From a virus (taxonomy: Duplodnaviria; Heunggongvirae; Uroviricota; Caudoviricetes), in the IMG/VR virus record IMGVR_UViG_2526164630_000024: a stretch of DNA of 9,194 nucleotides, one strand, 5' to 3'. The position numbers and the translations under genes were made by a program. This document shows positions 1,093 through 3,738 of the stretch, piece by piece. Under the pieces are notes generated by a model, which worked only from the letters and a program-made list of their open reading frames with translations, was not told where the DNA came from and did no database searches. The first letter of the stretch is position 1, and the number at the start of each line of letters is the position of its first letter.

Positions 1093-3738
1093 ATGGCAGG
1101 TAATTTTGCCGATCTGACAGCCGTGCTGACACTGGATTCTGCCCGTTTTTCTGAAGAGGCAGCGCGGGTAAAAAAAGAGCTGGGTGAAACCAGTGCGCTT
1201 GCTGATTTGATGTCCGGGAAAGTCAGTCAGTCTTTCAGAAAACAGGCTGACGCTGCTGAGCAGAGTCTGAGCCGACAGGCGCTGGCTGCACAAAAAGCCG
1301 GGATATCAGTCGGACAGTATAAGGCTGCCATGCGCACACTGCCCGCACAGTTCACGGATATTGTCACTCAGCTTGCCGGTGGTCAGAATCCCTTCCTTAT
1401 CATGCTGCAGCAGGGGGGCAGATCAGCGATTCATTCGGTGGACCGCTCAGCCTGCTTACCCTGCTGAAGGAGGAACTTCTCGGGATCAGGGATGCCTCTG
1501 AATCATCAGAGGAGTCGCTGTCAGATACGGCAAATGCACTGGCTGAAAATGCCCGGAATGCCGGTGAGCTGGGACGATTTATGTCGGTGGCCCGTGTGGC
1601 GGCAGGTGGCGGGGTTGCCGTACTGGCCGCGCTTGCTGCCGCCGCCTGGCAGGCAGAGCAGGCTGACCGGGCCTTATTGCGTTCACTGATCCTGACCGGA
1701 GGGGCGGCTGCCACCACAACGGCAGAATTGTGGAAAATGGCCGGGGTGATCAGCGATGAAGCCGGTGGTGGTATCAGACAGGCGGCAGAAAATCTGGCCC
1801 GTCTGGCAGAAAGCGGGAAATATACCGCCGGGCAGCTACGGATCATGGGGGAAACCTCGTCAGAGATGGCTGCAGACGGTGGGGGACGATGCCGGGAAGG
1901 TGGAAAAAGCCTTTGAAGGGATTGCAGCAGATCCGGTGAAGGCGCTGGCCTCCCTGAATCAGCAGTATAACTTCCTGAGCGTTTCCCAGTTACGCCATAT
2001 TGATGAGCTTGAGCGCACGAAAGGTAAACAGGCTGCGGTGACGGAGGCGATGTCCCTGTTTGCGGATGTCATGAATGCACGTCTGGAGCAACTTGATAAA
2101 GCGGCCACGCCGGTGGAAAAAATCTGGGACGATGTTAAAACCTGGACTTCTGACGCATGGGCATGGATAGGTGATCATACACTGGGGGGCACTCAGTCTG
2201 ATCACTGACGTGGTGGCCGGAACCGTTGAACAAGTGAAGCTGCTGCTTGTGCAGGGGGATCTGGCGCTGGCTGAATTTTATTCAGTCAGCCTGGGAAACG
2301 ACAAAGAATGTGCCCGGCGTTGGTGCGTTGTTTGGTGAACTGGCAGAAGAGAACCGCGTATTTATTGAGAAAACAAAACGCGATGAACTGGCGCTGAGAA
2401 AATCCATTGCGGAACGGGATGCGCGTATACGCCAGGGGGAAATGGGGTACATCAACCGCTCGCGTGCAACAGGCGTCAGCAAAGGTCCAGGGCAGCAGGA
2501 AGCCGTCAGCCGTCTGGCTGAAGAGCTGACAGGTAATAAGCATACATCACCGAAAACGCGCTCTGCCGGGGAGAGGGAAGAGGAGCAGGCAAGAGAAGCT
2601 CTGCTTGCCCTTGAAGCTGAGCTCAGGACGCTGGAAAAACACAGCGGTGCGAATGAGAAAATCAGCCGGCAGCGCCGTGATTTATGGAAGGCGGAAAGTC
2701 AGTATGCGGTCCTGAAAGAGGCTGCCACGAAACGACAGTTATCTGAGCAGGAAAAATCCCTGCTGGCCCATGAGAAAGAGACGCTGGAGTACAAACGCCA
2801 GCTGGCTGACCTGGGCGACAAGGTTGAACACCAGAAACGCCTGAATGAGCTGGCACAGCAGGCGGTGCGGTTTGAAGAGCAGCAGAGCGCGAAGCAGGCC
2901 GCCATCAGCGCAAAAGCCCGCGGTCTCACTGACCGTCAGGCGCAGCGGGAGTCTGAAGCGCAGCGTCTTCGGGACGTGTACGGTGATAATCCGCAGCGCT
3001 GGCCAAGGCCACAGCGGCACTGAAAAACACATGGGCGGAGGAAGACAGCTGCGCGGAAACTGGATGGCCGGGCTGAAGTCCGGCTGGGGCGAGTGGGCGG
3101 AAAGTGCGACGGACAGTTTTTCGCAGGTTAAAAGTGCTGCCACGCAGACCTTTGACGGTATTGCACAGAATATGGCGGCGATGCTGACCGGTGCAGAGGC
3201 AGACTGGCGGGGATTCACCCGTTCGGTGCTGTCCATGATGACAGAAATCCTGCTTAAACAGGCCATGGTGGGCATTGTCGGGCGTATCGGCAGCGCCATT
3301 GGCGGTGCTTTCGGTGGTGGTGCATCTGCTTCCTCGGGGACGGCCATTCAGGCTGCGGCGGCGAACTTCCATTTCGCGACCGGAGGATTTACGGGAACCG
3401 GCGGCAAATACGAACCTGCCGGGATAGTCCACCGCGGGGAGTTTGTCTTCACGAAAGAGGCAACCAGCCGGATAGGCGTCGGCAACCTGTACCGTCTGAT
3501 GCGCGGCTATGCGGAAGGTGGTTATGTGGGTGGTGCCGGAAGTCCGGCGCAGATGCGGCGGGCGGAAGGTATTAATTTTAATCAGAACAATCACGTGGTG
3601 ATTCAGAACGACGGCACCAACGGACAGGCGGGGCCGCAGCTGATGAAGGCGGTGTATGACATGGCCCGCAAGGGGGCGCAGGATGAGCTCCGGCTGCAGT
3701 TGCGTGATGGCGGTATGTTATCGGGGAGCGGGCGATGA
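1093..3738 (+). pseudogene. H: Tail tape measure protein H, full-length locus but reading frame switches at least 7 times
   Basis: ATG at 1093 preceded by GGAGG at 1080-1084. Translation starts MAGNFADLTAVLTLDSARFSEE...QSLSRQALAAQKAGISVGQYKAAMRTLPAQFTDIVTQLAGGQ, as in lambda gpH. The lambda-like sequence continues through successive frames and ends ...HVVIQNDGTNGQAGPQLMKAVYDMARKGAQDELRLQLRDGGMLSGSGR* at 3736-3738. Frame junctions lie at about 1413-1418 (G6), 1881-1885 (G5), 2184-2189 (G6), 2289-2298, 2994-2997 and 3047-3051. The locus is 882 codons against 853 aa for lambda H as I recall it. Confidence 0.85.

Follow-up and report, generated by a model that had tools for sequence, protein, structure and literature searches.

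The tape measure gene H in this lambdoid prophage tail module is broken into seven frame segments, and we consider this, with a probability of about 0.9, to be an artefact of a draft contig that was mis-assembled from a multi-copy region and is laden with errors. The underlying H genes are most likely ordinary, intact and 881 codons long. We infer the artefact from comparison with related loci. The earlier note on this DNA had offered two explanations for the broken frame, a sequence-quality artefact and very recent inactivation. The first is strongly supported by the draft status of the contig, an excess of 19 indels over 4 substitutions, five private indels in H and the location of two of these in a mixture of two allele classes. 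The second found no support as a general explanation and is possible at only one site, a G-run at 1413-1418.

The window, meaning the whole stretch of 9,194 nucleotides analysed here, was found through an exact match of its L protein, the only one obtained, to be identical to the entire draft WGS contig AIGX01000080.1 of assembly GCA_000250155.2 (9,194 bp). Exact searches with the proteins of two frame fragments, 2845-3735 and 7235-8323, gave no match. The AIGX record belongs to E. coli DEC 11C, an O45:H2, stx1a-positive and eae-positive member of the DECA collection (PMC4959244); DEC 11C is an O45:H2 STEC strain. The contig is bounded inside genes, beginning within V and ending within J. An entire short WGS contig with gene-internal ends is the form that a collapsed-repeat artefact would take. 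The window holds a lambdoid prophage tail module in the order V-G-T-H-M-L-K-I-J, which is the order annotated in its relatives and in phage lambda, and over its full length it is at most 97.4% identical to EHEC/Stx-phage tail regions. Scans for Rfam families, tRNAs and tandem repeats in the window found nothing further.

Two sets of sequences were used for comparison. A panel of 70 related loci comprised 64 IMG/VR contigs containing the corrected 38-mer across position 1859 and six loci from annotated records. The complete-genome set comprised 5,426 complete E. coli genomes. The features of the window, with the state of their lesions in the panel, are as follows.

1 to 280, + strand: V, major tail gene, 3' part, truncated by the contig start; a frameshift after 56 (A4 to A3), the deletion being absent from 52 of 53 panel loci.
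294 to 715, + strand: G, tail chaperone gene; a one-base deletion after 653, absent from 56 of 56 panel loci.
742 to 1049, + strand: the T part of the G-T frameshift product; a one-base deletion after 755, absent from 59 of 59 panel loci.
1093 to 3738, + strand: H, tape measure gene of the lambda gpH family, in seven frame segments, identified by alignment, Pfam and homology to annotated intact H in loci L001 and L002.
3735 to 6091, + strand: the block of M, L, K and I, all intact, within an indel-free core at 3048-7268.
3735 to 4064, + strand: M, intact.
4064 to 4762, + strand: L, intact.
4773 to 5516, + strand: K, intact.
5513 to 6091, + strand: I, intact.
6331 to 9194, + strand: J, tail tip gene, truncated by the contig end; ten private one-base indels.

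To locate the lesions in H, the gene was aligned globally and base by base to three intact relatives, L001 (NZ_AP042594), L002 (CP-1639) and L003 (E2863). H carries exactly six one-base indels, which confirms the split into seven frame segments that had been read from the sequence alone. The segments follow the frame order 1, 3, 1, 2, 3, 2, 1. The net length change is 0 and the span, 2,646 nt, equals that of the intact gene. As written, the three frames of H contain 12, 46 and 29 stops, and an uninterrupted open reading frame of about 850-880 codons was not found. The six lesions are listed below.

1413 to 1418, + strand: H indel 1, a one-base deletion reducing the G7 of intact H to G6; a recurrent variant.
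1859, + strand: H indel 2, a one-base insertion of G outside a homopolymer; private, absent from 67 of 67 panel loci.
2184 to 2189, + strand: H indel 3, a one-base insertion extending the G5 of relatives to G6; private, absent from 65 of 65 panel loci.
2276 to 2279, + strand: H indel 4, a one-base insertion extending the T3 of relatives to T4; private, absent from 63 of 63 panel loci.
After 2995, + strand: H indel 5, a one-base deletion of G, within the chimeric stretch 2994 to 3064.
After 3047, + strand: H indel 6, a one-base deletion of T, within the chimeric stretch 2994 to 3064.

Four of the six break positions proposed earlier were exact. The other two, 1881-1885 and 2289-2298, had been placed 10-25 nt downstream of the true lesions at 1859 and 2276-2279, evidently because they were derived from ORF overlaps. 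The alignment to an intact H of a related prophage, which the earlier note had proposed as a check, not only listed the six indels but also showed that six single-base repairs restore an 881-aa ORF with no stops.

The repaired protein is 98.75% identical to intact H and 98.5% identical to the H protein of CP-1639. Compared with H of L001, the repaired gene has 21 synonymous and 11 non-synonymous codon differences, and these are mostly differences between functional alleles, not private ones. Repaired H scored 157.6 bits against the Pfam family TMP_2 (PF06791, cut-off 30.2) and 73.7 bits against Tape_meas_lam_C (PF09718, cut-off 23), and both domains were also found in the unrepaired fragments in a precomputed table. 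With both Pfam domains above their gathering scores and a position between G/T and M-L-K-I-J, the gene has these two features of a lambda gpH-type tape measure gene. The description of H as highly lambda-like holds for the family and overstates the resemblance in sequence. Phage lambda gpH (AAA96548.1, 853 aa) shares the Pfam family (TMP_2, Tape_meas_lam_C) and the gene order, whereas repaired H is only 49% identical to it in amino acids over the full length and is 28 residues longer. The close relatives are the H genes of EHEC/Stx lambdoid prophages (CAH23254.1 of CP-1639; WP_464289558.1 of OkiPb01700; WP_097453818.1 of E2863). They are the same gene in the same module position and of the same length as in the window (2,646 nt, 881 aa), with 98.5-98.8% identity to the repaired protein. 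Unlike them, the window copy carries six one-base indels and a 71-nt stretch in which allele classes A and B are mixed, as seen in no real copy.

The indels were then compared with the panel and with the complete genomes. Apart from the G-run, each H indel was absent from all of the 59-67 panel loci compared at its site, and none or one of 60-67 loci gave any hint of having the state of the window. In most panel loci H is uninterrupted. A 71-mer across the inserted G at 1859 had no exact match in 641 complete-genome records holding 1,435 copies, the best matches all being one gap away, and a 161-mer across 2184 and 2276 had no match at or above 99% in 641 complete-genome records (about 1,440 copies), with neither insertion in any copy. 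The 39-mer across 1859 gave 0 matches in viral, species-representative and metagenome collections. This absence is informative because the corrected 38-mer across the same site gives 64 matches, all in IMG/VR viral contigs.

The damage was not limited to H. The scope of the earlier note was too narrow, since lesions of the same kind were found in V, G, T and J. Private one-base indels number 19 across V, G, T, H and J, and thirteen of them are outside H. Those in J are at 7268, 7273, 7276, 7297, 8307, 8524, 8793, 8818, 8836 and 8956, and each is absent from 23-30 of 25-30 panel loci. Three further differences were set aside as not being lesions: a pair of alignment gaps at 4709/4720 with a net change of zero, which 43-44 of 44 relatives also have; a 5-nt CGGTT separating L from K, as in 28 of 42 relatives; and a gap in an A-run past the stop codon of I, which is non-coding. 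Private substitutions are only four in 9.2 kb (1251, 2537, 3411 and 3420). Comparison of the first 3 kb with the best relative gave 8 indels and 6 substitutions.

Neutral decay of bacterial pseudogenes leaves far more substitutions than indels. The 19:4 ratio of indels to substitutions is the opposite of this expectation and points to an indel-prone consensus profile, not to evolution. The alternative of recent multi-hit decay, in which a dying cryptic prophage of DEC 11C truly has the six frameshifts of H and also those of V, G, T and J, is very improbable. The lesions are present in the deposited sequence, EHEC prophages are often defective, and frameshifted H genes exist in finished genomes. 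Against multi-hit decay, the substitutions do not outnumber the indels, the lesions are not inherited or shared among relatives except for the G-run variant, and five of the six H indels have no counterpart in the sequences compared. The window contains no large deletions and no IS elements, whereas a natural knock-out of H in strain 94_0962 (H91) was an IS600 insertion. The frameshifted H genes of five finished genomes have a single lesion each, not six. A core of 4.2 kb that includes M, L, K and I is untouched.

This indel-free core extends from 3048 to 7268 (4,221 nt), a gap with P of approximately 1.5e-4 if indels were uniformly distributed. Natural alleles match the M-L-K-I core exactly over long stretches, of 1,287 nt in panel locus L057 and 1,130 nt in L044. 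The clustering of the indels and the clean core fit region-dependent assembly quality better than neutral decay.

The sequence context of the 19 indels was also examined. Three are in runs of at least 5 (p = 0.01), 6 are in runs of at least 3 (p = 0.085) and 8 are outside runs. The association with homopolymers is modest, and a simple pyrosequencing-error model leaves part of the indels unexplained; a pure homopolymer-error model was rejected, as it accounts for only part of them, 8 of 19 being outside runs. A mismatch-repair mutator strain is expected to give indels almost solely in runs and many transitions. It was rejected on the same 8 indels outside runs and on the presence of only four private substitutions.

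The possibility that full-length H is still made, through a change of frame by the ribosome or polymerase at every site (programmed recoding or phase variation), was considered because the neighbouring G-T pair uses a programmed -1 frameshift at the canonical slippery heptamer GGGAAAG at 659 and because one of the H sites is a G-run. The six H sites, however, shift the frame in both directions, share no common slippery motif and in three cases lie outside any repeat. Most panel relatives encode the same protein in one uninterrupted frame, and these single-frame homologues imply that there is no conserved recoding; neither a conserved slippery site nor homologues needing a shift were found for H. 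The probability of recoding is close to negligible.

The last two H indels lie in a stretch of different character. In the panel allele alignment, positions 2994 to 3064 (+ strand) were found to be chimeric, with alternating allele classes. Real H alleles fall here into two classes, A (CP-1639-like) and B (OkiPb01700-like). Between the classes there are 28-36 differences, and within a class at most 8. The window stands 17 differences from one class and 14 from the other. Its 26 diagnostic columns read BBnAAABABAABBBBABBBnBBAABA, where n marks a column matching neither class, amounting to 11 switches in 71 nt, whereas 55 of the 57 real loci do not switch at all and the other 2 do so twice. The two n columns are exactly the deletions after 2995 and 3047, and both deletions coincide with sites at which classes A and B differ structurally. 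A 121-mer spanning 2995 and 3047 matched nothing above 89.6% in the 5,426 complete genomes, while its flanks matched many copies at more than 99%.

Natural recombination of this stretch, which multi-hit decay would require, is unlikely because approximately 11 crossovers in 71 nt would be needed. A column-by-column majority consensus of reads from two paralogous copies would yield the A/B pattern directly, and both classes do coexist in one genome, IMG 2617271340, in which loci L054 and L065 are of class B and L058 is of class A. The pattern at 2994-3064 has the appearance of the signature of a consensus made from collapsed paralogous copies. The two-class test for chimeras, applied also to J and to 3380-3520, was decisive at 2994-3064 only, since the real alleles of the other two regions are themselves reticulate. 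Counting the minimum number of copy segments gave 71 for the window, 36 of them of 20 bp or less, and 27-53 for clean finished loci at a similar distance. This count was rejected as a discriminator, since poorly sampled real lineages (L058, L017 and L053) gave more, and a sliding minimum-distance mosaic test was limited in the same way.

The copy number in related genomes, which hold several near-identical copies of the module, would allow such a collapse. In genomes with this H its median copy number is 2 and the maximum 5, and the whole tail module occupies a median of 3 and at most 14 places per genome. Paralogous features of EHEC prophages are not resolved by short reads (PMC5359411).

Similar cases were found in other sequences. 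Short draft-derived contigs carry a multi-frameshift H of their own, broken at other positions, with 12 events in L065, 7 in L044, 4 in L037 and 3 in L063, and the O121 genome of RM8352, although labelled complete, has lost single bases at six sites in H and also carries a frameshift in U. These five sequences have the same pattern of errors as the window at other positions. Draft or unpolished assemblies of multi-copy prophages share with the window gene-internal ends, an excess of indels and chimeric alleles; in contrast to consensus errors of draft assemblies, the error spectrum of the window is not purely homopolymer-associated.

For the assembly artefact, the following mechanism is proposed. 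A single contig would have been built from reads of at least two paralogous copies. At sites of difference between the copies, its consensus would flip from one to the other and lose bases, and the deletions after 2995 and 3047 may have arisen in this way. Other indels would be read-level errors, some in homopolymers and some outside, that were kept in the consensus; these are the indels at 1859, 2184 and 2276, those of V, G, T and J, and probably the one at 1413-1418. Around the indels of the first 3 kb the relatives do not vary. Mixing of paralogues is therefore not enough to account for these indels, which are put down to read-level or consensus error by exclusion. The pile-up and the sequencing platform are the parts of this account that we infer. 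The 454 Titanium platform and the Celera assembler were used by the same centre in the same year on other strains, which for DEC 11C is a lead only.

The G-run at 1413-1418 differs from the other five sites in H. The G6 version was matched exactly in 31 of 647 complete-genome records, approximately 5% of finished genomes with this gene, and is common to 5 of 63 panel loci. Six finished genomes with G6 were examined, and in five of them (E2865, O26 RM10386, FORC_044, 95JB1 and O145 RM9873-C1) it is the sole lesion in H. The haplotypes of these five differ by 9-203 substitutions, and every copy bears the annotation 'frameshifted', for example EL389_RS32835 of E2865. Such natural alleles have the same lesion as the window at 1413-1418; in contrast to them, the window has five more lesions in H and thirteen elsewhere. 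In a clonal O26:H11 prophage, most genomes, including the reference 11368, have G7 and a gene of 2,613 nt, and a scattered few have one of 2,612 nt.

These observations mark the G-run as a recurrent hot spot, at which real slippage and systematic homopolymer error are both possible. A mixed case can be envisaged, in which strand slippage truly shortened G7 to G6 in one or more of the H copies of DEC 11C and the remaining indels are artefacts. The exact matches in the finished genomes and panel loci, the wide divergence of the haplotypes on which G6 is the only H lesion, and its sporadic occurrence within the mostly G7 clonal O26:H11 prophage argue for this case. Against it, a run of seven Gs is the most error-prone site of the gene for pyrosequencing and for long-read consensus, and several of the G6-carrying records are presumably long-read assemblies. 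One carrier is RM8352, the genome noted above for its six one-base deletions in H. In a contig with as many errors as this one, an error at the G-run is also likely from the outset. Overall, the mixed case is possible and rather unlikely. Equally tentative is a reading in which strand slippage makes the G7 tract, close to the 5' end of H, a true hot spot that recurrently and independently disables the tape measure gene and with it tail assembly in EHEC lambdoid prophages; beneath the assembly noise, DEC 11C would then have an allele of this kind in one of its H copies.

H in this window is a member of a well-known tape measure family, and its broken state would not be a real biological feature. 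That no full-length tape measure can be made, as the earlier note had concluded, is true of the sequence as written but is no reliable guide to the strain. In short draft contigs of EHEC prophage regions, 'pseudogenes' with several frameshifts should not be taken as prophage decay, and calls of a 'defective tail' or a 'cryptic prophage' based on such contigs would be wrong; the artefact is also visible in further public draft contigs and in one or more genomes that are labelled complete. The sole biological lead is the G7 tract in H. If the hot spot is real, it would offer a simple and repeatable route to immobilising a prophage, or a contingency-type on/off switch.

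The frameshifts of the window extend beyond the tape measure gene H to V, G, T and J. Single one-base deletions that are private to the window are present in V (window position 56), G (653) and T (755). In J there are ten private one-base indels between 7268 and 8956, including three undercalled runs inside 10 nt at 7268, 7273 and 7276, with a net change of -3. Only the first and last thirds of the contig contain indels (P ~1.5e-4 under uniformity), and the core that is free of them has exact matches of more than 1 kb to natural alleles. The features considered here are as follows, in window coordinates:

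659-665, canonical lambda G-T slippery heptamer GGGAAAG, 6 nt past the deletion at 653
1413-1418, G7 tract of H, present as G6 in the window and also in loci L072-L077 (one-base deletion)
3048-7268, core of 4,221 nt without indels, in which M, L, K and I are all intact
4767-4771, CGGTT (5 nt), intergenic, after the stop codon of L and before the start of K

The heptamer reads GGGAAAG in the window, whereas the closest relatives have GGGAAAA (for example L001, NZ_AP042594, 1158-1166). RefSeq labels the T gene of these relatives 'incomplete, missing C-terminus', seemingly a by-product of annotating a gene that is read through a programmed frameshift.

At the 3' end of H, window 3326-3550 contains no indel, and its allele combination is absent from all relatives compared. 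The minimum distance to relatives reaches 10 per 100 nt here, and two of the window's four private substitutions (3411 and 3420) fall within it. Counting switches between two allele classes gave 4 in the window versus 0-3 in real loci. This stretch is probably a further patch of mixed-paralogue consensus.

Of 647 complete-genome records, 31 carry the G6 form of the H tract. Five finished genomes, which differ in serogroup and haplotype, have it as their sole lesion in H, and it occurs sporadically in the clonal O26:H11 prophage. The tract is a recurrent hot spot for one-base deletion, a pattern that real slippage and systematic homopolymer error would both fit.

Multiple frameshifts in H, at differing positions, were also observed in the IMG/VR contigs L065 (12 events), L044 (7), L037 (4) and L063 (3). 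In O121 strain RM8352 (L074, NZ_CP028110), whose genome is labelled complete, H carries 6 events and U is frameshifted too; some of its deletion sites in H (positions 1165 and 1345) recur in L065. Separately, H of strain 94_0962 (H91; NZ_CP074791.1 2138775-2142654) is interrupted by an IS600-family element, a case in which this gene has been knocked out naturally.

Against the two closest relatives, CGGTT has the appearance of an insertion in the window, but it is a natural intergenic polymorphism: 28 of 42 panel loci share the window's state. Many relatives match the window's H only from its nucleotide 161 on, the differing 5' end corresponding to window 1093-1252, and their H, of 2,613 nt, overlaps the end of T. 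Two alternative 5' modules of the tape measure gene therefore exist within this group of prophages.
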